DNA of 64,000 nucleotides, taken from positions 37,495,703 to 37,559,702 of the forward strand of contig CP154954.1 in the NCBI GenBank assembly GCA_039621445.1. The letters are read 5' to 3'. This DNA is from Euglena gracilis. Its lineage: Eukaryota. A program made the position numbers and the translations under genes. Each line of letters begins with the position of its first letter. Positions within the stretch are counted from its first letter, which is position 1. Of the stretch, positions 1-63,540 are shown piece by piece. Below the pieces are notes generated by a model. The model was not told the DNA's origin. It saw only the letters and a list, made by a program, of their open reading frames with translations, and did not search any database.

Positions 1-1913
1 ATTCGCGCACCAATTCCCGAGTCCACAGGCACATTGCCACCAAATCGCGTTTCCGCTCATGCGGTGGTTCCCCCACTAGCATTACCAGTCCCAATGGACG
101 AGTTTTCGGATGATGAGTCGGGTTTTCAAGCGAAAACCAGACCCACCCCCCTCTTAAATCAAGAGATTCGGGAATCCGAACTTATTCGTGGTATGATCCA
201 CACCCCTACACCGGGTATTGGTCACACCTCCCAAATTCGCTTAGTAGCACCAATGGTGCAACCATGTGATACCTCACCCCCACATGCGCAACCGCATCAC
301 CATTCGCGCAATCGCGATTCCCCTAATTTGCATGGTACCTATGGTACACTAAGTGGTATGTTCCATGCGCAATCGCAGAATAACCCGAACAATACCCTTG
401 GTGCAACCACCGGAGTACCTGCACATGGTGCGATTTCGCGCCCGGGCCCACGCCCCTGGAATACCACCGAAGGGCCACGGGTTTCTCAGAAAGATTTCAA
501 AGGCACCATCGCGATAGCGAACAAGGTGAAGCCCCAATGGGACGGTGACCCCACCACGTGGAAACAATTTTTCCGCGATTGGGAATATTACTGGGATTTG
601 AAGGGACCCACCCAAGATGACAACCCGGAGGTAATCAAGATGGAATTCATCGATTGCCTCCCCAGGGATGAAAAAGAACGCGCCAGACAATTGGTCATTG
701 GCAGGCGCATTTCTTTTGAAGAATTGGTTGAGCAATATGCTTCTTCATGCTCCAGTTTGGTTTCCAGAATCAGTCTGGAAAACAAATGGCGGCCAATTCA
801 CCCCCCCGGACCGCAAATGGAAGTCGATAGACTTGTGGTACTCCAAGTGGCTTGCATTAGCAGCCGAGGTTGATGAGTTAGGGGAAAAGCAAATCAAAGA
901 ACAATTTGATGCGGTATTACTGCGCTACATCCCCAAACTCATCAAGGAAATTCACCGCGAGGAACTCGCGGGACACATTTTGACTCTCGATGAGAGATGG
1001 AATTATATTTCCAAACAAATGAAGTTATCACAACTTCTGGGACAGATTGAATCGGCATATCACCACCACCCTACCGCGGGTGTACCCACCGGTTCAGTCC
1101 ATGCAGTCCAAAGGACTACCTCCCCAAAATCACCAAAATCACCATCGAGTGATTCCAAAACGCGCTATCCGCGCTCAAACCCCAAATCCCCGACACGGGA
1201 ATCCAAACCGCGCTATTCGCGCTCTTCTGACCAAGTTTCGGACAAAGTGTGCTTTTTGTGTAATCAACCGGGACATATGTCTCGCGAATGTCCGAACCCC
1301 CAAGCGCGAAAGCGCAGTAAGAGCCCCCGAGGATCCCTCACTTCCTGGAGTTCGCGTTCCTCACGATCTGCGCATTCGCAGCGGTCGGGATACCGATCGG
1401 GTGATGGAAGACCGCGTTCCCGTTCACCCCACCGCAATAGCGGACGTGGTTTCAAACCGCGAGGTCGGTCCCCCCGTACCCCCTACCCGTAATCGTTATG
1501 CCAATCGCGATTCTTCGCGATCTCGGTCGCGAAGTGGGTCATCCTCTTCGCGATCCGACCGCGGTCGAGCGGATAACCGCTCCCCGCGTCGCCATGATGC
1601 CAAAAGGCAATCGCAATCGCGAACCCGTTGTTCCCTTTGTGGGTCTAAAGACCACCATTCATCCAAGTGCCCCCGTTCCCGCTCTCCCCGCCCTAGCCAT
1701 GGTCGTCGCGATTCCAATCGCGGTTCTGCCAATAGGCAGCGGGTTGGTTTCAAAATATCCTCTATCGAGGAAAAAGACCTGGCTTCGGGCAGGGAGGGGG
1801 ATGAGAGCACCGAGGATGAGTTGGTGGAAGACAGGAATGCCATTCGCGCGATACGCGCAATTTACTCTAGGAAGTCCACCATAGGCCAAAAGGCCGACTC
1901 CGATATGGAGTAG
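1..1913 (+). CDS. gag: Gag (capsid-like region, two CCHC zinc knuckles, Ser/Arg-rich region); 5'-partial, apparent frameshifts near 805 and 1480
   Basis: ORFs 34-873, 668-1492 and 1047-1913 join up. Capsid-like PQWDGDPTTWKQFFRDW; knuckles CFLCNQPGHMSREC (1250-1291) and CSLCGSKDHHSSKC (1629-1670); ends at TAG 1911-1913. Confidence 0.85.
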
Positions 1914-1996
1914 GGGAGCCCGAGGTCTGAGGGCACGGACCTCTGGGCTGATGAACAGATGGAGGTAGGAACTGATCACCCCTGCCCCCCCTGCCC
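1911..1996 (+). promoter_or_regulatory. Candidate stop-codon readthrough signal at the gag/pro junction
   Basis: TAG is in frame with the protease ORF. It is followed by an 8-nt spacer GGGAGCCC and the stem GAGGTC (1922-1927)/GACCTC (1938-1943). Loop GGGCA could pair with TGCCC (1983-1987 or 1992-1996). Confidence 0.5.
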
Positions 1997-2520
1997 ATCG
2001 GTCTTTTTGGTCGGTACCCGGAAAATTTTCGGGTCCCCCACTCCCCGCGCCAAATTTTTGCTTGGAATGTTGAGCAAAGTAAGCCAAGGGTCATGGAACA
2101 GTTGGCGCAACAACAATTTTACACCCGACCCTTCGCTTTGCGTACCCCCCATGGAACTTTTGGTCCAAGCGAAAATCAAAACTCAAAATTTCTGTGCACA
2201 AGCCAAAATTTTAGTCGACACAGGGTGTCGAATCCCCCTTCTTTTCCGCAAAGGACTTATACCCACCCCCCTCTTGGTTCATGCCAAGAATCCCATCAAA
2301 ATTATGACCGCTGACAACAGCCCCATGTGCGGTGGTGACTTGGGATGCATTTTGGACATAGTCCTCCCCATTATCCCGAAGCACCACACACACACCCCCA
2401 CAATTCCAAAATTTTCTGGGTACTTGGGCATTCGAGGCGAATATCGCCGGGTCAGATGTCATACTCGGTTTTCCGTTCCTCCGGCAACACCGATTGGTGG
2501 TGGATTGTCCTTCGCACGGT
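1914..2520 (+). CDS. Retroviral-type aspartic protease domain of Pol (frameshift near 2400)
   Basis: KILVDTGC (DTG at 2217-2225); GSDVILGFPFLRQH follows in a shifted frame at ~2450-2490. Confidence 0.85.
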
Positions 2521-3576
2521 TTGCGCACTACCCCCCGCACACACACACACCACACCCCCGAACTTGTTCCCCGTGACATCCCCCAGGATGTCCCCCCGCA
2601 TTTCCACAACGTTTTCCACAACCGAAAACACCGTTTCCTACCCTAGGGGTAAAGAGAAAGCTGCCCCCCTACCCACCGCACTTTTACCGCTCGTTTCCCA
2701 TGCGGTAGGGAAAGCCAGTAGCTTAACCCCGCACGTTTCGCTGGGTTCCCAGGCGAAAGCCCAAAGGCCTGAAGAAATTTCGGTGTCGAGTAGCCGCCCA
2801 GCTGCACAACTTTTACGTTTTCCACCAGGTGTGTCGAGTTCAGACACCCCTGTACACCCCCCAGCAGCTACCCCAACCGACACCAACTTATGCACTGACA
2901 CCCACACAAACGCGCACCACATGCACCACCCCTCCTACCAATGCGCCCACTGTCGGAGAATTTCCGCTTACCATGATTTTGATTGTGGATGTCTAGTTGA
3001 AACTTCTAAACTAATCCGATTGGATCCCGCAACCGGGAATTTCCCCCCCCCTACACCTGGTAGTGATACCTATACACCTGGTACGGATTTAATAGATAAC
3101 CAAAAGGTACACAGCCTTGATACCATGGGTGATACACCCATCAGCACACTTGGTAATTATGCACAGCTCACAAATCCACTTGGCAGTTTTTCGCAATTCG
3201 CGAAAGTGAATCGAGCACTACAGTGCAAAGGCATAGCCTCCCTCTTCGGATTCGCGCATAGCGCTCCCTATGCGCCTATGGCGCTCTCCAACACCCCCGC
3301 GCATATCGCGCTTCCCGCACATAGTGCGAATTCCGCGCATATCGCGCTTGCCGCACATAGTGCGAATCCCGCGCATATCGCGCATTCCGCGCTATCGCGC
3401 ATCACCGATGATTGGGTATATGCCCAACCCACCCATGTCCCCCCTGGATTGAGTCCTATGGACATGTATGTGGATGATTCACAATTTCGTTGTTCTGTGT
3501 TACAGCGTGTTCCCCCCCTTCAGGATGTTGAGCAGATCTCCAAGTACACCAAGGATACCTGGAATGCTTTTCAATT

Positions 3577-3990
3577 TGGTCAATATCGAATTTTGAAACA
3601 TTGGTTTTCAAAAATCGCCGATATGGCGGATTCTTTTGATTTGACCTTGGAAATTGATGCATTCTCCTCCAACGCGCATTCGCGATTACCGCGACATTGG
3701 TCGCAACATTCTAACGCTTTTGATAAGTTTTGGGGAGACACTATCCTATGGATGCATCCCCCCCTGAAACTTATCCCGCTTGTTGTAGATAAAATTTTCC
3801 AGGATCAAGCGCGAGGCGCATTACTTGTTCCTGTGAATCCCGAAGCGGAATGGTTTCAAAATTTGACTTATGTCACATTTTATTGGTGGGACCTACCAAA
3901 CGATGTTCCTCTATTCGAGGATTTCCGTGGAGTGGTATTACCACCTTTTCAAGAAATCATTTTCCGTGTTTGTTTCTTTGATGCTTTTCA
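3577..3990 (+). CDS. Dam/DIRS-type DNA N6-adenine methyltransferase-like domain inside Pol
   Basis: In ORF 2345-4786, in frame with RT: EIDAFSSNAHSRL (motif I-like), NAFDKFWG, ILWMHPPLKLI (NPPY-like motif, here HPP at 3755-3763), VVDKI, ALLVPVNPEAEWFQNL. Order and spacing match the MT domain of DIRS elements and phage Dam enzymes. Confidence 0.8.
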
Positions 3991-4239
3991 TGTTTCTCAA
4001 TCTCCACCCCTGAATGTTAGTGTGTTGGATCATACCGACTATGTGGGAGCCGATACGGCTTTTGTGTCTCATGACGATAGGCCTACACGTTCGGAATCCC
4101 CTGTGGTCGATATGACCCATAAACAGGTTTCCGCTGTCATTGAAAGTGCAGGACAGCATCCAAAATCAGCAGAATCTGTACGCGCATCAGTCGCGAATTT
4201 TCTGGTGTTTTGGAAAACCCTGTTTATACCTTTTGGAGT

Positions 4240-5000
4240 TTGTAAGATTGAGCTTAAGGAAGGCGCAAAGCCAATGCATCGGAAATTTTTCCGTTGTTCC
4301 GGAGAAAGAGAGATAGCTCTCAATGAAATGATTGAAAAGCTCATAGAGCGGAAGTGGATCATCCCTTCCAAGAGTGAATGGACCTCCCAAGCAGGTCAGA
4401 AAAAGTGGAGGCTGGTACTGGATTATCGGTACTTAAACTCACAGACTAAGGATGACCCATTCCCGTTACCTCTAATAGAGGACCTTATCACAAAACAAGC
4501 GGATAACCGCTTGTGGTCAATTTTCGACCTGGAGGATGGTTTCCACCAAATGCATCTGGATCCCGATTCGCAAGCCTATACGGCTTTTGTAACATCCAAA
4601 GGTGTTTACCAATGGACGGTTTTACCAATGGGTGTTAAGAATGGACCAGCAATGTTTCAGCGCATGATCCAATGGGTCTTACGGGATTTACCGTTTGCGC
4701 TGGTATACATTGATGATGTTTTGGTTGGTACCCCCCCCTCCTTCAGCGAATACACACGAGAATATTCTCGACATTCACTATCGTGATGTTCGCGCGGTAT
4801 TAGCCGCATTTCTCAAACACAGACTCTTTGTCAAAGGTGCCAAAATGCACTTATTTCGCGAAACGATAAAGTTTTGCGGTCACATTCTCAATAATGGCCA
4901 ACGCCGAGCGGCGCCTAGCAAACTAGAGGCCATTAAGAAATGGACACCTGAGGTCATCAAGACCATCACCCATTTGAAAGGATTTTTGGGATTAGCCCAA
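4240..5000 (+). CDS. pol: Reverse transcriptase (Ty3/Gypsy type); frameshift at C-run near 4735
   Basis: WRLVLDYRYLN, FPLPLIEDL, FDLEDGFHQM, TAF, PMGVKNGPAMFQ, YIDD (4706-4717), then IKFCGH and LKGFLGL in ORF 4695-5366. Confidence 0.97.
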
Positions 5001-5089
5001 TATTACGCGATTTACATGAAAGATTTCGCGAAAATCGCGGTACCTCTATCGAGGCAACTCAAAAATCGCGCACCCGAAAATACCAAAGT

Positions 5090-5650
5090 CAAATGGGACG
5101 CAGATATGCGTGAAGCTCTAGAGAGCATTAAAAAGCTAATGCTTGAAAATGTCGTACTCGACATCGCGGATCCCTACAAGCCTTATGTGCTAGAAGTCGA
5201 TAGCAGCGATTATGCTGTAGGCGGTGTTCTAAGCCAGCATAACGCGGCTAACGAATTGCGCCCTGTAGCTTTTTTTTTTCTTTTTCTTTTTTTTTTTTTT
5301 CTTTTTTTTCTTTTTTCTTTTTTTTTTTTTTTTTTTTGCATTCTTCAGCAGAAAGCTACAAGGTGAAGATGGCAAAGGCCAAGTTAAATGAAGTATCCGT
5401 GTGAGAAGGAAACGTACGCAATCGTACTTATTTTACAAAAATTCCGTAGCTGGGTCGCCAGCTCCTTGGTGCAAATACTGGTGTTGACTGACCATGAGAG
5501 TCTTCAACACTGGTATACCGAGGATCTGAACAAAGCCATGTCATCCGTAGGCCGAAGATGCCGATGGCATGAATTTTTGAGCCAGTTCAACCTAGTGGTT
5601 GTATATACCCCTGGCCATACACAAAAAGTAGCAGACCCGCTCAGTCGAGC
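5090..5650 (+). CDS. RNase H domain, interrupted by a T-rich tract
   Basis: [14 protein letters not shown]...RPVAF[insert]FSRKL...EKETYA...LTDHESL...VADPLSR. Confidence 0.9.
5270..5337. repeat. 68-nt poly(T)/(T)nC tract inside RNase H
   Basis: Splits the conserved PVAFFSRKL motif; coding resumes at 5338. Confidence 0.9.
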
Positions 5651-6059
5651 ACCCTGGCATTACCCCGGTAACCCGGATGAAGGTGATGCCACCTTTCATG
5701 GAAGCCAAGAGGCTGATGAATATGCACGTCGATATGACGCAGCCGACGATATGTTGGATTCTTTTCCCGTTTCATCGATTTTTCGTTCGTTGCCAGTCTC
5801 TCCTATACGGGGGAGAAGGCGGCGAGGCCGCACACCTGGTCCCCGTCGCATTACGCGATCTGAATCTCCTTCCCCCCTCTTCTTTCGCGAATGGGATTAT
5901 TCCCATGACCCTGTATATAGCACGATAGTGCACAGACTGCGCAATGGCGAGGTTGTACATAATTATTCCCTTTCCCCTTTACGGTTGGTTTACCGCGATG
6001 ATGCGGGATATAAATATTGTATACCCCGTGACTTGGTTGATGAAGTACTTTTGTGTTAT

Positions 6060-7100
6060 CACAACCAAGGTCACCCTGGGGCCCCCAAACTTCTTTCTTT
6101 GGTGGGTCGCAGGTACTGTACAACCCTGAAAGAAAACGATTTGCATTCGCGCTGCTTGCAAATTTCGCAACGGTGCCAAATTTGTCAAGCGGTAAAACCG
6201 CGCAGAGGTACCCCCCCTGGTACGTTGGACTTTTTCCCCGTACCCCCTGACATTTTTACGTCCCTCTGCATGGATTTTCTGGAATTAGAACCTTGCAAAG
6301 GATCAGACGGCAAAATTTACGATTATGTTTTTGTTGTCGTCTGTAGGCTGAGTGGTTACATAGTAGCCATTCCATGCCAAAAGGCAGGGTTGACCGCGCA
6401 AATTTTAGCGCAGATATTTATGGAGAAGTGCATATGCCTAATGGGCTTACCGAATGAGATTGTCAGTGATCAAGATCATTTGATCTCCTCTCGATTCTTC
6501 ACAACCCTATGTGGTTTACTGGGAATCGAACAGCATTTTTCCATTATATATCGCCCGAAGGGCAATGGCCGCGCCGAGGCAGCAGTGAAAGCTGTTGTAA
6601 ATATGCTCCGTCTTTCACTGGCTGATTCGCGCCAGGCCTGGGTCCAGGTTTTGCCATGGTCCCTCTTTTATATAAACACCCTACCGGGTTTAGTTTTACC
6701 CCACTCCCCATACAAAATTGTTTTTGGGCGAGAACCCCCAGCAATTGGTGATATACCATCAGAGAGACCAGCTCGAAGTAGCGTAACCTGTGAGACATGG
6801 TTCTCTGAGGTAGAGTCTCTCAGAACTACTGTTCAGAAACGCATTACAGATATCCATTCTCAAAAGAGAAATAAATTTTTACAAGAATTCAAATCACCTG
6901 GCTATAGTGCTGGTGATCGCGTATGGGTTCGGAATAGCCGAATCCGTATGCAAGCTTCCAAGCTTGACCCCCTCTGGCTCGGGCCCTGTGAAATACTCGA
7001 ACGCGTTGGTAACAGTGGCCGCTATAGGGTGGCACTGCCCAACGGGATCGAGGATGTTCACATGGATGATTTCAAGCCATACCTTCAGACGCCTAATGGC
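6060..7100 (+). CDS. DDE integrase with HHCC finger and GPY/F-like module
   Basis: HNQGH...CQIC; catalytic MDF, SDQD, GRAE; WLGPCEI; all in ORF 5388-7346. Confidence 0.95.
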
Positions 7101-7154
7101 AAAGCACTACCGTGCCTTTATTTCAAGCCCCGTTCCAAGTTACCCGAAACGGAT

Positions 7155-7346
7155 GATTTTGTGGTGGACAAAATTCTCGATCACAAAATTGATCGAGGAG
7201 TCCACTACTGGAAGGTCAGGTGGAAAGGCTATGGGCCAGAGGAGGACACCTGGGAGCCAGCCTCCAGTTTTGTCGGTTATGTCCAACAGGACTGGAAGCT
7301 GTGGAATAAAAGAAATAACATAGACATTTCTGTGAATAATTTCTGA
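7155..7346 (+). CDS. Chromodomain at the integrase C-terminus
   Basis: [39 protein letters not shown], with aromatic cage residues retained. Confidence 0.93.
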
Positions 7347-7360
7347 AATCGGCCTATAGG

Positions 7361-7425
7361 CCTTTTCCTCCCCTCTCCGTGTTTTCCTCCCAACCTCAAT
7401 TCATTTCTCTCTTCTTTTTCTACAG
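7361..7425 (+). promoter_or_regulatory. Polypyrimidine tract plus AG: candidate (trans-)splice acceptor for ORF3
   Basis: About 60 nt of mostly C/T ending TTCTTTTTCTACAG, 39 nt before the ATG at 7465. Confidence 0.55.
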
Positions 7426-7464
7426 CTCATCAAAGCTACTTTTTGCTTTTTGGTCCCCGGACCG

Positions 7465-10400
7465 ATGCAAGATCCAGGGCGCGGACCCGGTCCGCCCCCT
7501 ATACAGTATGCCATCCCTCCCTACCCCCCTCACGCCTATGCGGCGGCACCCCCAGCCCAAGGGGCGCCCGCATATGCGGTATATCAACCCCTCCTGCCGC
7601 TTATGCGGCCCAGGCACAAATGCCACCCCCACCTCAAATGATTCAGGCACAAATGCCATACCCCTCTCAGGCACAAATGCCGCCCCCCTCTCAGGCACAA
7701 ATGCCGCCCCCATCTCAGGCGCAACCGCCACCTGTCGCTTATGCGGCTTCTGTGCCAATGGGAGCTGCATATGCGGCACAGCCTCAACAGGCATATCAAG
7801 TTCCAATGGAACAGTCACAACCCCAGCAGGTACACCAAGTTCCAATGGAACAACAACAGTATGCGAGGCAGGGACAGGCACCTCCAATGGAGCAGGCGCA
7901 TTACGCCATGCCTGGCCCCTCACCTCCCATCCTGTATACCCCACAGTATGTTACATCTCAGCAACCCCAATCCCAACCCCAATCTCAACCCGTACAGGGT
8001 ACCCCACATCAAGTACACGCCGTACAGGCGATGCCCCAACCTGCTGCTTATCCCGTCCGGGAACCCGCTGCCCAAACCGCAGCTAGCAGCAGTAGTATAT
8101 CCGCTTACGCGATCCCTGTGGCACATGAGACGCCACAGGCAGCACCAACGGTGCCATACCCCGCCTTCACCGCAGAATTGGTGAATCTCGCAGAGAAGAC
8201 TCTGCGAACGGCCTTGCGGGCCAGCAACCTAGAGAGAGTAGACCCATCTCTACAGGTGCTGTGGGATACCCACTGTCGTCAAATTCTGGGCCTGGCCAAT
8301 AGGCCCATTGCACAATGGTGCGCATGTGGCCAGACTTTGATGACAGGGAAAGTGTACTTCATGCCCGGGGAATATCCCCCTGAGGTCAGCATGCGTACAC
8401 TGGGTATTACAGTACCACCTATCCCGCGGATACGTCATCACGCAGGTGCATTCACCGAATATATGCGTGAACAGAGTCCCTCGATAAAGGAAAGCGAGAT
8501 GGGAGATTATCCAGCACAAACAGTGCAACCATCGCGAATTTTTCGCGATACCCAATCCCCACCTCGTATGCCGAGACCACCACCACCCGAATATCGGGAA
8601 CCACCAACGCAATATGCGGCGGAGCCAATGACGCAACCGTCAACAGCACAACCACCATTTCCTTATCCAGCCCATCTGGAAGCTGGAAGTCAGTTACCCG
8701 TACAACGGGATATGTCGGTGGCTCAGAAACCTGGATCCTGGGCTGAGGATGTGGAGCAAGCCGAGGCCGAAGGCCGAATGGCTGTGGAAGAGGATGTGCC
8801 AACGGCACCTGAACCTCTCCCAGCACCTCGCTTCACATCACCTCAGCAGGCCATCCAGTACTACCAGTCCCTAGAGCAACTTCAGGGCCCACGGTCTGCA
8901 GAACGCAGATATGCGTCACAGCCGTACAGGCCAGCAGACCTAGGTAGTAAACGGGGCAGGCCAGAATCTTCATCCCCAATGGGGAGACCGAAACCCCCGG
9001 CCCCTGCCCCAGCCCCAGCCAGACAGGCTACCCCAGCACAGCAACGACGGCGCCGGGTGGCCAACAGGCCGCACCCCCTCCCGTGCCCGTACCGTATGCC
9101 GCGCCGGCTAAGCCAGCGCCAATGGCGCAAACCCGGCCGGTGCCAGCAAAAGCAGCAGCGCCGGCAGCTCCAGCAGCGCCAACGGCGCCACTGCCGGTAG
9201 CAGCGCCAATGGCGCCAGCATCCCAAGAAACACCGGTACCTCCAGGCCAACAGGCCACCACCGAGGTACTGCCTGTTCCTGAACCCACACAGCAGCAGCT
9301 CGAACAGGCTGAATTGGCCCAGAGAGCCCATAGGGCAGAAATCGAGCACGAAGCTGCTGAGCGTGCACGCGTCCAGAAAATACTGGATGACACGCGTGAA
9401 CGTACACGCCACCCCACTTACATTGATCCGCCTAGAGGCGAACCCCTCCCTATCAATAATCCACCATTTTTGGCGGATATGCAGGATCAACCTGCAGCCG
9501 ACCCAGCAGCCAAAATGGCTTATGCCCCGCAGGAATTGCTTGGAACAACAAGTGATATGAATCCTGCCTTTATAGGCCCTCATTTTGCAGCCCATCTCTG
9601 TCCTCATGCTTGGAAACAAGCTAGAGAAAAGATTGCCCGAAGCGAAGCCCGATCGGGCAAGGGTAAAGCCAAAAGTGCTCCCAAACGAGCACCGACAGCA
9701 GGCCAAAAAGGCCAAGGCAAAGGCCAGAAAGGCCAATACCGGAACGTCTATGAGGACGACATGGAAGCTCTATTCGAGCACATCAAAGAGATTCATGCAC
9801 TCGCATTCGAGGCCATGAGAAAGTTTCAAAACGAACTTTCTCTTCCAATGCTGGTTGCATCCCCCGTCGTGACTGTGACCAGACAGCTCTATTTGGAGCG
9901 TAATCGTGAGTTCCACCACGATGGAACCCTGTATGCCTATGAGGGCAACGTAATTCTCGGTCCGATACTGGACGGACTGCCGGGATTCTGGCACGTTTGG
10001 TTCTGGGCGGGATACCCCACCCAAAATTTCGGCAGATTTCTGAACTCCTGTGGATATCCTTATCTGGATTGTGGTCGGGAAGACCGATACAATACAGGTA
10101 AAGATTTGCTACGGCAGTTATTCGACTGCATTCGCAGTGTAGGCCCAAAAGGCCTGGAGTGGGAAATCTACCCACTGCCTGACAATATTGCCAAATTGGC
10201 AGAAAACATGTTCTGCAGCAATCTGCAAGTCTTCTACCACTGGCAATATGCCTATCATTTTGAAGTGGTCGATATTGACCTCCGCTTCCCCCAGACGTAT
10301 ATCGTCAGATGCACCCACTGTCACGAAAAGTTTGCAGTGGACTTCTGGGGATTCGGAGTACGCAGTACTCAACCACAGGCCGAAGGCCAGGACGAGGAAG

Positions 10401-13267
10401 GCCAACAGGCCAATATCCCGCAGACAGCGCCAAAGCGCATCATGCTCCTGCACCTTTGCAGAAATCCAAAGGATGTTCACCAAAGCTCGAATGGGCGACG
10501 CAACCACCGTCAACTCCTGCTGTATTTGCAGCAATTCTGGTTCAGGGCTTGGACCTGCCAGATTATGGAGATATATTATTATCTCAATCCCGATAGGGAA
10601 ATCCCCCCGGACTATGTCCCCATTAGGCCCCGTTTCGAGAAGGAAAGCATAGACGATTATGTCAAACGCCGATTCGGCGATACGCTCGATAGAGCACTAT
10701 TCCAGCCGTTTTTCCAAGGCGGCAGACGGAACGAGCTGGGCATGGCCCTACCCCTCCTACGCTTCAACCACAGAATGGTTGAAGACGAAAGGAAACCATG
10801 GGATCTTTTCCGATTACGGAAAAGACAGGTGCCACAGGCACCTGCCCCGAAGCCGCAACCGGCTTCAGAAGTTCCGCCATCGGAACCTTCAACACAGCCG
10901 CAACCGGCATCAGTACCCACAACGCAGCCGCAACCGGCAACGCCTGTTCCCCAGGGTATTCCTGGTGACACACCGCCACCCGTCTTTGGGCGCGGTCGGC
11001 GTTACCTAAGTTCCAGCCTATCGGCTACTGCGGAACCATTTATCCCTAAGGGATTACAGGAGAGTCAATCTTCTGTCGCAACCTCTTCACCCCAGCCCGC
11101 TATTGCGGCACCCCCCACCAGCGCGACTGCGCAACCAACAGCTGTGCCTACCGCTACAGCGGAACAGCCAGCAGCCCCTGCCGCTTCACCAGAAACGGTG
11201 GAGGACAGTGAGGGGAGTGATGGTGAGGGCGGTGAAGACCGCATGGAAGGCCTGGAAGACATATGTGCTGATGAACCTCAGCAATCAGTCCTTCCACCAG
11301 TCCCAATAGGGTCCAGGACACCTCTTCCACCTGAAGGAGATGTCAGCTCAGAGTCTGAATCGCCTGCATCCGAGGCCGAACGGCCACCGGTACCCCCGGT
11401 ACCACCCCTAGCCTTACCAGTAGTGCCAACGGCACAAACGACGACAGAACCTGTCGCATCACCGACAATACCTACGGGTGTTTTAGGTGGTGTGTTACAG
11501 GGGCTCACCGCGGCGATGTCCGCAGTATCAGCAGTACTGACCCCTCGAGGCTCACCAGCCACATCCCCTCCCGAAACCCAAAGGGTTACTACGGCAGATA
11601 GCAGCTCAACAGCCGTACAGCCTACGGCTACAACTCCAATGGAGTTGGATGTCCCAGCAGCTAAACCAGCTGCACCAGCACCGCCAACCGCGGAAATGCA
11701 ACCGCCTCCTGCCAAACCGGCAGCATTGGCACCTCCTGCCAAACCGGCAGCCCCGAAACCGTCAACAGCGGAAAGACCACTGCCTCCGGCAGACCCTCGT
11801 GAAGAACGCCGATATGGCAGGCAGAAGAAGCCTAAGGCTAAACCTTCAGCCGAAGGCTGCAAGCCCGCTGAACAGCGGCGGGATGATGAGCCACCACCGT
11901 CTGGTGGAGATGGCTCTGGCACAGGCCATAGGCCTACGATACCCATGGCCAGCTATGTGGCTGCAACCTCTGAAGGCGCTAAGCGCAAACCGACAATCAG
12001 ACCGATTCGGTCAAATGTCCCTCACGAGGCCGATGAGCCATTTTGGACTGAGGACGTACTGTCCAGAGTAGACCCCCTCAACACTCGCCAGGCTAGGATC
12101 AATATGATCCGCAACAGCAGTGACCCCTGGCTGAACAAGTGGATCAAGCCCTTGTTCCACCGGGATCAACCCGGTATTTTCACGACCAGCCACACTTGGC
12201 GTTTTTGGAATGCGAAATCTCCAAGGGTATTAGCCCAATATTTTGGAGGAAATTTCGTACTGGATTTCCAGGACAACGATCCACTATTGTGGTTATGTAC
12301 AGCATGCCATAGGCTACGAAACGACATGCCCGCAGTGCATATCTGCACACGCAACCCGGATAGCATAAGCTTCCACCATGATGCATATGTGCGCAATTGC
12401 GCAGCACTGGTTTGTGGCGATTGCCTGCTGACATGGTCCAATATGGACAATTTCCGCTGGACAGAAAACGATTATGACAAGGACATACCTGTCCGTTGCA
12501 TCAACTGCCTACAGGCAGGTTTTTGGTTACCTGCCACTGGTGGTATGACTAGAATCATACCAGAAAATGAAGACCATCTGGTCAAATTCAAGCAGGACTA
12601 TAAATCCCAAATCAACTTCTACCAGTTCAAGAAGTTCAAAGCTGTACACAGCTACGGCACAGGCGGAATCGCCAAAGATTTTCATCTTGACAGCGCAGCT
12701 GTCCGACTCGCAGTCGAGTCAGCAGGCAAGGCCAAAGTGCCATACATTTTTCAAGACTCCGATTGGGACAGGGTAATATACCCACTTTTTACGGCACAAA
12801 GCCTGCCAAACCGACCAAGTTTTACCTTTTTGTTGCCTGAATACCCCCCTGAGGCCTACAAAATGGAATTTACCGATTGGGTAAGAGAAGTTTTAAGGCC
12901 ATTCACCATCCGAGCGCGAGTCGCAGGTTGGCACACCAAGGCAGATCCTGCCGTTTATCCGGGGATACCCCCACAGGTTCAATGCAACCATCCCCGCCTA
13001 AATTTTTGGATCTGGCCGGCAATGTTGCCACTTTTCTTCTGGGATAACCTCCAGAATTTTCTGCATCGCGAAGCCAACAGGCTTGGAGTACGATTACCCG
13101 ATGGGTATACACAAAAATGGGAATATCCCGACTTTGATGTTGATGAGCCTGAAAGGCAACTTGTAAATTTCGAACCTCCGATACTGGAGATAGTGGAATC
13201 TCCTGAAGGAGATTACGTTCGGGAGATCAGACCACCGACTCCAAGGAAATGGCCGTCTGTGCCATAG
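7465..13267 (+). CDS. Extra retroelement ORF3 (~1,900 codons, apparent frameshifts near 7590 and 9050-9080): Pro/Gln/Ala-rich linkers, two globular blocks and an 8-Cys zinc finger
   Basis: MQDPGRGPGPPP (7465) joins ORFs 7443-9200 and 9083-13267. Aromatic-rich blocks at ~9760-10830 (with CTHC) and ~12040-13260; C-x2-C-x12-C-x17-C-x4-C-x2-C-x24-C-x2-C at 12296-12508. Confidence 0.75.
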
Positions 13268-14091
13268 ATACCCCAGGCTTACAGGCCACAGGTCCATGGA
13301 CCCTGTTCTGACCTTTCCATCAGGCCTATAGGCCTTGTATTCGGTATCTATCCCAGGCACATCTGCCAATATGTATTTTTACTTTACATATTACCCCCTC
13401 TCTTTTGGGCTACTGCCCACTTGTCGAGGTATATGCCTCTGGGGATACCCCATCGACAACATCGTGTCCGAGCAGCGCTGTGAAGCCTTCTCCTAGCGGT
13501 ATATGCCGCCAGTAAGAAGACACACAGCGTACAGCGCGCACACCGTAATAATAGCTCCCAACTTGTTACTTTTCGGCTATAAGGCCACATAAGACTGCCA
13601 GACAGCAAAACTTCTGCTAAGGTCTTTTGACCAGCCCCCCACTCCTCTCTCCTTTACCCCCCTGGGCAAAATATCGCTGTCGCCGGCAGTTGGTTTTGTA
13701 AATAGGTCTTTCTCCCTGGTCAGATATGACTGGCCAGGTGCCCCTTCCTTCCACACCCCACCCCTCAATCTTTTCCGATTATGGAATGAGACCTCCCTGC
13801 GTGTCATAGACACACCCCAAACTGGGTGGATGGGACTTTCTGGAATGGAAACCTTCCAGCCCCATTTCCCAATGGGCTCTTCCGCTTCCACCCCTCTGCC
13901 GCAATAAGTAGGCACTGCATAAGCGGTTAACCGCTTTTGCGCGTTTTTGCGTTATTTCGCAATTTCCTTCCCACACCCCTGGTGACAGGAGAACCAAAAG
14001 CCGCAAACGGCCTTGTGACATGTCCCCGTCACCAGGACTGTGTCCGGCATTCCGACTGGCCTGGTCCAGTAGGGAAATCGGGCATAGCCCT

Positions 14092-61348: not shown

Positions 61349-61929
61349 GAAGACGACGTTGAAATGTTAACAGCCTCTCAATGTTCTCAACTTGGCCCAG
61401 CCCATGGCTCCTGGTTTCCGATGAATGCGCTGCCGGTTTTCCCCCAACTCCCTTTCGCCCTGCCGACTGCTTCCGGAGTGCCCGGCCTTGATGCTGGTGG
61501 CCAATGGCTACAGGACCACCAAAATGCTTCATTCCTCCCCTTGATGGACAACATCCACCCTGTGACTTTACCCTCACCACAACCACCAACGCCAGCACAC
61601 CTGCCCATTCAGTCAACTATTGCTTCTCCGTCAACGACGACCGCTCAACCATTCCAACGATCCTGTGCCATATCTCCTGTCGTTGCCGGAGTTAGTAACC
61701 CTGGTCAGCCCGCTTCACACTCCCAAGGGGACGTGGCCATGTTACCCAACTCACAGGACAGCAGGCAACGCCGAGTATCTTGCTCTGTTCCCCCGGGTAC
61801 GTTCCCAGATGACGGGGCAACCTTGCATGGCTCGGTTGCATGCTCTCCACCCATTTGAAGAGCCCCCTGGTTTTGGAACGTGGGACCCGTCTCACCAATT
61901 GCAATTTGCGAGAGATGCAGAAACCTTGC

Positions 61930-63540
61930 GGGACCGAACGTTTGCTCTGCGGAAACTCATCTGCACCTTCCCAAAAGACTCCGCTCCGGGGCCGTCTGGG
62001 CTCCGGCCAGATCACCTTCGGAGCATGCTAGCAGACTTGCCAGGATCGCGAGCTGAGGATCTCCTTGAATGCTTGGACAAATTTGTCACAGATTGCATCT
62101 CCAAAGGAGTCCACCCCCTCATGGCTCCGATTCTATCATCGGCAACTCTCACACCCTTGCGTAAGGCAGCCGCCAACCCACAGAATGGTAGTGAACCGGC
62201 AGCTGATGGCACCCGCCCAATCGCTTCTGGTGAGTGCCTTCGGCGGTTGGTGGCCAAAGTGCTGATGCACCACCCAGCAGTGACCCAATCACTTAAGGAC
62301 CTGTGCCCCCTGCAAACAGGTGTCGGTGTCAGAAATGCTTGCAGCCTGACAGCCATGGGTTTGCAACAGATGGTTTCTGATCTTCACAATAAGAAGGAAG
62401 AACGGTGGGGCTTGCTCCAAATTGACCTCACAAACGCCTTCAACAGGATGTTTCGCGCCTCCGCTCTCGACAGTGTCCGCCGCAGATGCCCATCCGCCCT
62501 GCCATGGTTGGAGAGCTGCTATAGCCAACATTCTCGCCTGTTTTGTGGGAAATCGCTGCTGCTATCCGCCCGAGGGGCACAACAAGGGGATCCGTGTGGT
62601 CCTGCTCTCTTTGCATGGGGTCTCCAAGACATGCTTGAAGATTTGTCCGCTTCTGTGGAATGGCAAGGCTGGTACCTCGACGACGGACATCTGTTGGGTT
62701 CCCCCATGCAACTCCACTCAGCACTGTCCACTCTCTCCAGGGAGGCAGGAAAAAGGGGCCTTGTTGTCAATCTTGCAAAGTGCAACCTGTGGGGCCCCTC
62801 TTTCACCTCTGCTAGCAACCATGGGTGTTATCCGGACGCTATTCCACCAGACAGCCCCCTGCGCCAAGTGCCAATTGTCCCGTTTGTGAAGGACTCCGGC
62901 GTCAAGGTCCTTGGTGTGCCACTCTGCCATCCTGAAGGTGACGCTTTTGCCCGACAAATCTGGCGCAAACGCGTGGATGGTGTTGTGAAGGCATGTGACT
63001 CCCTCTCAAGGCTCCCCCAGGCACACCTCCAGTTCACCATTCTGCGATATTGCCTGACATCATGCAAAGTCAACGACCTCCTTCGCGCTACGCCTCTTTC
63101 CACGGGCCGCCCAGAATGTGCAGCTTTCCGTACGACCCTCCGACATTGCTTTGAAGGAATAGTTGGCGGCCCTGCTTCCCTGAACAATGGGAACAAATTT
63201 GTCTCCCCATCCGGCTGGGTGGACTGGGCATCTCTGACCCGGGACACATTCGTCTACCAGCTCGGATTGCTGGCATTGTGGAATACATCCGTCGAGGCCC
63301 CGAAACCCTTGGTATTCCTTCGGCGTTCCCCAGGGCCCCCTCAGACACTCTGGTGTGCCTCCAAGAAGCCTCAGCCATCCTCGGCAACGTTGCACCACTG
63401 GTGCAATGGGTTGACGACCTGTCACTGTTGAAAGACGCGCAAAGTCCTCACACCTCCCAAAAGTGGTGGAATGGACAATTTTCCACGGCACGGCAAACAG
63501 TTCTTGCAAGGACCCTGCCCCCCACTGACCAAGTCCAATT
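61930..63540 (+). pseudogene. Non-LTR reverse transcriptase (CRE-clade-like)
   Basis: SAPGPSGLRPDHL, RPIASGECLRRLVAK, LQTGVG, IDLTNAFN, GAQQGDPCGP, WYLDDG, GLVVNLAKC, VKVLGVP; frameshift near 63180. Confidence 0.92.

Follow-up and report, generated by a model that had tools for sequence, protein, structure and literature searches.

A Dam-like methyltransferase-fold domain with a His-Pro-Pro motif between protease and reverse transcriptase in the Pol of a high-copy chromovirus

The analysed window, a stretch of 64,000 nucleotides, opens with a Ty3/gypsy retrotransposon that occupies its first 7.3 kb on the + strand (Table 1). The 5′ end of the element is cut by the window edge, and Gag extends beyond this edge. 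A search of positions 1–14000 revealed one element copy with its 5′ end beyond the window, but neither an LTR pair nor an internal repeat. In ORF 5388–7346 the chromodomain comes after the rve core and the SH3 domain, which identifies the element as a chromovirus. The Pol order of this chromovirus family is protease, Cys motif, Dam-like domain, reverse transcriptase (RT), RNase H, integrase and chromodomain. The protease region gave a weak Pfam match to Peptidase_A3 (E 0.027), and its DTG and ILG motifs are split between frames in the window copy; both motifs lie in a single frame in the intact relative P0153. Further lesions were found downstream. Positions ~4180–4230, before the RT, could not be aligned to P0151, at 4391 the window copy lacks 30 bases that other copies possess (as seen by comparison with contigs from public runs), the frame changes within the RT near 4731–4735, and a T-rich insertion breaks RNase H. 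The window copy is thus defective in protease, RT and RNase H, and its Dam-like segment is still open.

Table 1 Features of the window, with positions counted from its first nucleotide
Feature	Position	Strand	Basis or remark
Gag CCHC zinc knuckle	1250–1294	+	frame 2; Pfam zf-CCHC E 7.2e-7
Aspartic protease	2211–2481	+	DTG 2211–2237 in frame 3, ILG 2455–2481 in frame 1
Open frame holding Dam-like domain and RVT_1	2339–4786	+	frame 2
C-x2-C-x10-C-x-C motif (YQCAHCRRIS...DFDCGC), putative zinc-binding module	2936–2992	+	regex
Low-complexity variable linker	3008–3559	+	34% identity to P0151, 56 gap columns
Dam-like (PF05869-type) methyltransferase-fold domain	3560–3988	+	Pfam, AF2, Foldseek
EIDAFSS	3650–3670	+	ORF 2339–4786
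NAFDKFW	3713–3733	+	ORF 2339–4786
LWMHPPL	3746–3766	+	His codon CAT at 3755–3757
Motif IV equivalent HPPL	3755–3766	+	loop directly after strand ILWM
ALLVPVNPEAEW	3818–3853	+	ORF 2339–4786
FRVCFFDAF	3962–3988	+	ORF 2339–4786
RT and beginning of RNase H, defective	4235–5273	+	RVT_1 E 6.2e-22; tblastn of P0151
T-rich insertion with in-frame stops, breaks RNase H	~5274–5408	+	ORFs; tblastn of P0151
C-terminal part of RNase H, integrase (H2C2 zinc finger, rve core, SH3), chromodomain	5409–7346	+	Pfam
Chromodomain	7167–7259	+	PF00385 Chromo E 3.9e-10
Long open frame	7347–9200	+	617 aa; Pro/Gln/Ala-rich
Long open frame	8951–13267	+	1438 aa; Pro/Gln/Ala-rich
tRNA-Asn	61493–61588	−	predicted by ARAGORN
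Second RT ORF	61566–63431	+	RVT_1 E 2.5e-13

Directly after the chromodomain follow two long open frames (the 'ORF3' region), possibly part of the element, neither of which gave a Pfam match at E ≤ 10. Near the 3′ end of the window we observed a second, unrelated RT ORF, the start of which is overlapped by a predicted tRNA-Asn. This was the one tRNA predicted in the tRNA scan, and the Rfam scan returned no match. Scanning of 10 of the 18 ORFs of at least 200 aa between positions 13000 and 64000 yielded no Pfam match at E ≤ 0.01 except the second RT. Judged from these ORFs, the window looks repeat-rich and without a recognisable host gene.

A preliminary description of this DNA had recognised a series of methyltransferase motifs in the same open frame as the RT and had ascribed them to a Dam-like domain at positions 3577–3990. 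Indeed, all motifs of the series were found together with RVT_1 (E 6.2e-22) in ORF 2339–4786 (Table 1). The domain is present at the proposed place, but its core proved to be slightly wider, spanning about 3560–3988. PF05869 (Dam, DNA N6-adenine methyltransferase) was the sole Pfam family that matched this segment. The 166-aa domain scored 23.6–24.1 bits (E 3.2e-5 to 4.7e-5) and 20.4 bits were obtained within the whole ORF, so that the curated gathering cut-off of 28.1 was not reached. A HMMER search of 1.84 billion representative proteins retrieved 407 relatives of the domain at E ≤ 1e-3, 84 at E ≤ 1e-10 and 10 at E ≤ 1e-30. Together with the Pfam match, these relatives led us to reject a chance occurrence of the motif series. 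We aligned the query with 59 shorter matches picked from the 150 listed. PF05869 was matched at E ≤ 1e-3 by 46 of these 60 sequences (best E 2.1e-18), and some relatives pass the Pfam cut-off, for example P0015 with 39.7 bits. Since many relatives match the profile, the homology of the window domain is supported by transitivity. Positions kept across the 166-aa domain are D47, F49, W72, W78, P81–P82, K92 and P105. Sequence searches of the PDB with the single sequence and with a profile gave one insignificant match each (E 0.43 and E 1.6), and a short-protein homologue search returned no match at E ≤ 1e-5.

An AlphaFold2 (AF2) model computed on the 60-sequence alignment reached a pLDDT of 92.3 and a pTM of 0.86. 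Comparison by Foldseek with the predicted viral structures of BFVD gave 20 matches at E ≤ 1e-3, headed by phage DNA N6-adenine methyltransferases. These phage Dam models matched with E 4.7e-9 to 1e-6 and TMq up to 0.71; for several of them TMq was 0.6–0.7 and the rmsd 2.4–3.8 Å. Among solved structures the best match was the N6-adenosine methyltransferase PCIF1 (CAPAM, PDB 6irx and others), with a Foldseek E of 8.8e-4 and a VIA-align Z of 10.4 for a Rossmann core superposed over 135 residues at an rmsd of 3.5 Å. It was followed in VIA-align by PH1948 (Z 9.6), by KsgA, DIMT1 and METTL5 (Z 8.6–8.9), by T4 Dam (Z 8.2) and E. coli Dam (Z 8.1), whose Rossmann cores superpose as well, and by M.TaqI (Z 7.7). 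The structure prediction that the preliminary description had suggested as a check thus returned Rossmann-fold methyltransferases, T4 Dam and E. coli Dam included, and the claim of a Dam-like methyltransferase domain is borne out by Pfam, by AF2 and by structural matches to adenine methyltransferases in BFVD and the PDB. We regard it as nearly certain that the segment represents a Dam-like domain of the class I Rossmann SAM-methyltransferase fold, conserved in its lineage and related to phage PF05869, in the Pol of a high-copy chromovirus.

The relatives also revealed how the domain is embedded. When the ten longest of the top matches were scanned with Pfam, Dam was found in all ten and RVT_1 in four; in each of these four the Dam-like domain was N-terminal to the RT. 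P0021 and P0027 run on from Dam and RT into RNase H and integrase. P0151, the closest relative among those stored (E 7.5e-81), is intact and consists of one ORF of 1208 aa that aligns from the linker via Dam, RT and RNase H into the integrase. P0153 (1662 aa, one ORF) comprises protease motifs, Cys motif, Dam, RT, RNase H, integrase, SH3 and chromodomain, and shares 49% identity with the window copy in the Dam-like domain. All four (P0151, P0153, P0021 and P0027) are intact metagenome polyproteins in which Dam precedes RT, RNase H and integrase. Scans of metagenome contigs and viral contigs for the DNA of sister elements found no relative. As originally proposed, the domain lies in a chromovirus Pol after the protease and before the RT; this order is seen both in the window and in the intact P0153. 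Likewise, the presence of the segment at the same place in sister polyproteins speaks against a one-off insertion. We therefore rejected a nested DIRS fragment, given the identical site in intact polyproteins and a Pfam analysis that found neither a tyrosine recombinase nor a DIRS-type order. The Dam-like domain is, by these comparisons, an integral part of the element rather than a nested fragment.

Comparison with P0151 further revealed uneven conservation along Pol. In the Dam core 114 of 143 residues are identical (80%), versus 34% in the linker before Dam and 39% in the spacer after it, both of which are gap-rich; RT, RNase H and integrase are 84–93% identical. The higher identity of the core compared with its flanks indicates that the Dam-like domain has probably been under purifying selection.

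The family is also abundant. Contig pieces covering positions 3300–5500 at a likeness of at least 80% numbered 12575 in the public DNA run X1 and 4146 in X10, a part of these pieces spanning the Dam segment. With thousands of such pieces from DNA runs, the element family is highly repeated in its host. Contig depth is unable to rank the parts of a gene, and we make no claim based on depth. Contigs of the RNA-labelled libraries X15 and X20 also match the stretch, which is not proof of transcription.

Upstream of the variable linker, a regex search detected the motif C-x2-C-x10-C-x-C in the window copy and in six of the 153 stored proteins (P0002, P0008, P0009, P0039, P0151 and P0153). All six are chromovirus-like relatives of the Dam-like domain. 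AF2 modelling of P0002 showed short beta strands in the Cys-motif region (pLDDT about 78–83), which a disordered linker joins to the Dam-like domain. The motif may represent a small module that binds zinc and nucleic acid and forms a pair with the Dam-like domain.

In Rossmann adenine methyltransferases, motif IV occupies the loop after the fourth strand, and its catalytic form is defined as (D/N)PP(Y/F/W) after strand 4. In the AF2 model the His-Pro-Pro of the window domain lies exactly there, in the loop right after the fourth strand (ILWM) and before a helix. The window domain departs from the canonical motif in that it reads HPPL. This replacement of NPP(Y/F) had been pointed out before and could be read directly from the codons at 3755–3766. 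To place the motif among its relatives, we aligned 114 domains, namely the query, the 111 of the 150 listed matches that cover the motif, P0151 and P0153. The first residue was N in 83 domains, H in 16, C in 10, F in three, Y in one and A in one. The fourth residue was F in 69, Y in eight, W in five, L in eight, I in six, V in three and another residue in 15; 82 of the 114 domains thus have an aromatic residue here (F, Y or W), and the window copy has L. The query and P0151, both HPPL, form a pair with a support of 0.997, and their sister P0001 carries NPPI. P0153 (HPPA) and P0006 (HPMF) complete a five-member group (support 0.857) with H in four of the five members. The wider chromovirus-like group displays NPP(I/V/L), HPPF or YPPI, and the aromatic fourth residue is missing across most of it.

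The possibility that HPP is a one-off change of the window copy, hinted at by the remark in the preliminary description that CAT is a single base away from AAT, did not stand: the His is also present in P0151 and P0153. Because it is common to diverged elements with intact frames, it is no lesion of this copy, and HPP is a lineage trait rather than decay of the window copy. Among the 40 contig differences listed (243 others exist), none lies at the CAT codon 3755–3757. Elsewhere in the alignment we observed an eight-member clade with H only, in which HPP is mostly followed by N or D (P0052, P0072, P0074, P0092, P0107, P0113, P0117 and P0130), and a six-member clade with CPPF or CPQF (P0025, P0028, P0030, P0043, P0047 and P0143). 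A motif IV with Cys or His for Asn is thus recurrent and stable among Dam-like domains of the retroelement type, and the persistence of clades lacking the Asn could mean that they comprise functional enzymes.

The explanation that we favour, and hold to be rather probable, is that the window encodes a genuine Dam-like domain in a chromovirus Pol, probably with weak or altered catalysis. We lean towards weak catalysis because the fold is kept, but the clade varies at just those residues on which an enzyme should impose the strongest constraint. To the mechanistic part, a structurally maintained module of weak or altered catalysis that would work on the replication intermediates of the element, we give an even chance. 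What we infer about substrate, SAM binding, methyl transfer and an effect on chromatin would then read as follows. The Dam-like domain would be made within Gag-Pol and travel with RT and integrase, where it would act on, or bind, RNA:DNA hybrids, cDNA or copies that have just been integrated. In the HPPL/HPPA sublineage, with the remaining fold preserved by constraint, the domain would most likely be a SAM- or nucleic-acid-binding module and not an efficient N6-adenine methyltransferase. Such a domain could, for instance, imitate the 6mA system of the host or enlist it, and may link new insertions to that system. The preliminary description had conjectured that the element could mark its own cDNA or modulate silencing by the host.

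The strongest competitor of this weak or altered activity is full activity, with an HPPL-bearing N6-adenine DNA methyltransferase that deposits 6mA on cDNA or new insertions, thereby promoting permissive chromatin. In its favour are the retained fold and the other conserved positions, the persistence of HPP in the intact ORFs P0151 and P0153 and the great abundance of the family. Furthermore, the N6 amino group of adenine could still donate a hydrogen bond to His, so that HPPL need not abolish catalysis. In M.TaqI and Dam the flipped adenine stacks against the aromatic side chain of motif IV. Precisely this residue and the Asn are both replaced in the window domain, and among its closest relatives the first position alternates between N, H and Y with the rest kept, which argues for a relaxed catalytic constraint. 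Related elements provide evidence in both directions: according to the accessible text of a preprint of May 2026 (bioRxiv 10.64898/2026.05.21.726589), 6mA is enriched on the copies of Dam-bearing LTR retrotransposons (DAM-LTR) in two ichthyosporeans and in Euglena, but expression of DAM proteins in E. coli led to no gain of 6mA, even for those with NPP. Weighing these points, we consider full activity rather unlikely, though it is the alternative that survives best.

A more far-reaching proposal, which we put forward as distinctly speculative, is that the window element, P0151 and P0153, which share a motif of (N/H)PP plus an aliphatic residue, the upstream knuckle and the order protease, knuckle, Dam, RT, constitute a further, independently assembled DAM-LTR lineage from a host group that the published survey did not include, with scores too low for its screen. 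Their Dam fold would serve as a non-catalytic reader or adaptor, for example of SAM, of 6mA-marked or hemimethylated DNA or of RNA:DNA hybrids, and would cooperate with the chromodomain in directing new insertions or shielding them.

Methylation of RNA, for example m6A on the genomic RNA of the element or near its cap with consequences for packaging, translation or stability, is suggested by the top matches among solved structures, which are RNA adenine methyltransferases (PCIF1, PH1948, KsgA, DIMT1 and METTL5). We judge it very improbable, since the sole Pfam match is to a family of DNA methyltransferases and phage DNA N6-adenine methyltransferases matched with a far better E (4.7e-9 in BFVD versus 8.8e-4 in the PDB). 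No member of PF05869 was among the PDB matches by sequence or fold, and the PDB ranking is thus not decisive. A relic without function, be it a decaying passenger or a one-off nested DIRS fragment left open by chance, would fit the defects elsewhere in the window copy, the non-canonical motif and the Pfam score under the cut-off, but is hardly credible and largely refuted by the identical position of the domain in independent, intact polyproteins, by a core far better conserved than its flanks, by the high-confidence compact fold model and by the lack of a tyrosine recombinase or DIRS-type order.

Retrotransposons with DNA-modification domains of their own show mobile elements engaging the host epigenome. 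To these the present element contributes a chromovirus family of very high abundance in which the Dam-like domain is conserved and its catalytic motif is non-canonical (HPPL/HPPA). It thereby offers a natural test case for the question of whether the Dam-like domains of retroelements are adenine methylases or pseudoenzymes, and suggests that screens based on profile thresholds under-count such elements.

With phage Dam proteins of PF05869 the window domain shares the profile match, the matches to predicted structures and the small size without a large target-recognition insertion. It differs from them by HPPL in place of NPP(Y/F), by its location inside a polyprotein and by a score below the gathering cut-off. 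PCIF1, T4 Dam and E. coli Dam share the Rossmann core, but they are larger, possess extra recognition domains and are only 7–10% identical to the window domain. The resemblance to these three is one of fold class, not of membership. A closer parallel is found in DIRS1-like elements, whose Pol contains the same type of Dam-like domain. In the accessible text of PMC3266345 their order is given as RT, RNase H, MT, the function of the MT domain being stated as unknown; this agrees with the kinship to the DIRS MT domain, and with the place of that domain after RNase H, that the preliminary description had mentioned. DIRS1-like elements encode a tyrosine recombinase and lack a protease and a DDE integrase. 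In the window element, on the other hand, Dam precedes RT, and protease, rve integrase and chromodomain are present; Pfam scans of its ORFs found the rve integrase and no tyrosine recombinase, which sets it apart from the DIRS1-like group. As a lead only, we mention that the Protein Atlas holds eukaryotic RT clusters in which PF05869 occurs in a minority of members.

The best counterpart is provided by the DAM-LTR retrotransposons of the 2026 preprint, which include chromodomain-bearing elements. Its accessible text reports 10,030 eukaryotic DAM proteins, assigns 30.9% of the DAM-associated transposons to chromodomain LTR elements, names five DAM-LTR lineages and infers at least four transfers from DIRS to Ty3/gypsy. 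In the model proposed for DAM-LTR elements, 6mA deposited on the cDNA or on new insertions keeps these in transcriptionally permissive chromatin. Our full-text search of the literature found no further publication dealing with Dam domains in LTR elements other than DIRS. The window element resembles DAM-LTR elements in that a prokaryote-like Dam domain related to the DIRS MT resides in a Ty3/gypsy Pol that also comprises a DDE integrase and a chromodomain; Dam and RVT_1 share one ORF and the DDE integrase follows downstream, as is characteristic of DAM-LTR. The window element is thus a member of this group, and its architecture was already known. The preliminary view that a Dam-like domain is not a standard part of chromoviruses must be revised in this respect. 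Asn-Pro-Pro is reported in almost all published DAMs; the window domain has HPPL. Concerning the domain order, the preprint describes one other clade with Dam between integrase and RT; the order protease, Dam, RT of the chromovirus clade is not stated in its accessible text, in which the word 'protease' has no mention.

The DAM screen of the preprint employed hmmsearch with a threshold of E ≤ 1e-5. In single-protein hmmscan runs against PF05869 we obtained 3.2e-5 for the window domain, 7.8e-4 for P0151 and 6e-3 for P0153, values that depend on the search size and are only indicative when set against 1e-5. The window domain and nine of the ten closest relatives scanned fell between 1.8e-5 and 6e-3, the exception being P0015 with 5.2e-10; weak scorers in this range comprised P0004, P0005, P0006, P0008, P0009, P0151, P0153 and the window domain. 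Since this clade scores worse than 1e-5, it may have been missed by the published screen, and screens at E ≤ 1e-5 might in general miss it. Within the DAM-LTR retrotransposons, the HPPL/HPPA motif, the upstream Cys motif and the sub-threshold PF05869 scores look particular to the clade of the window element.
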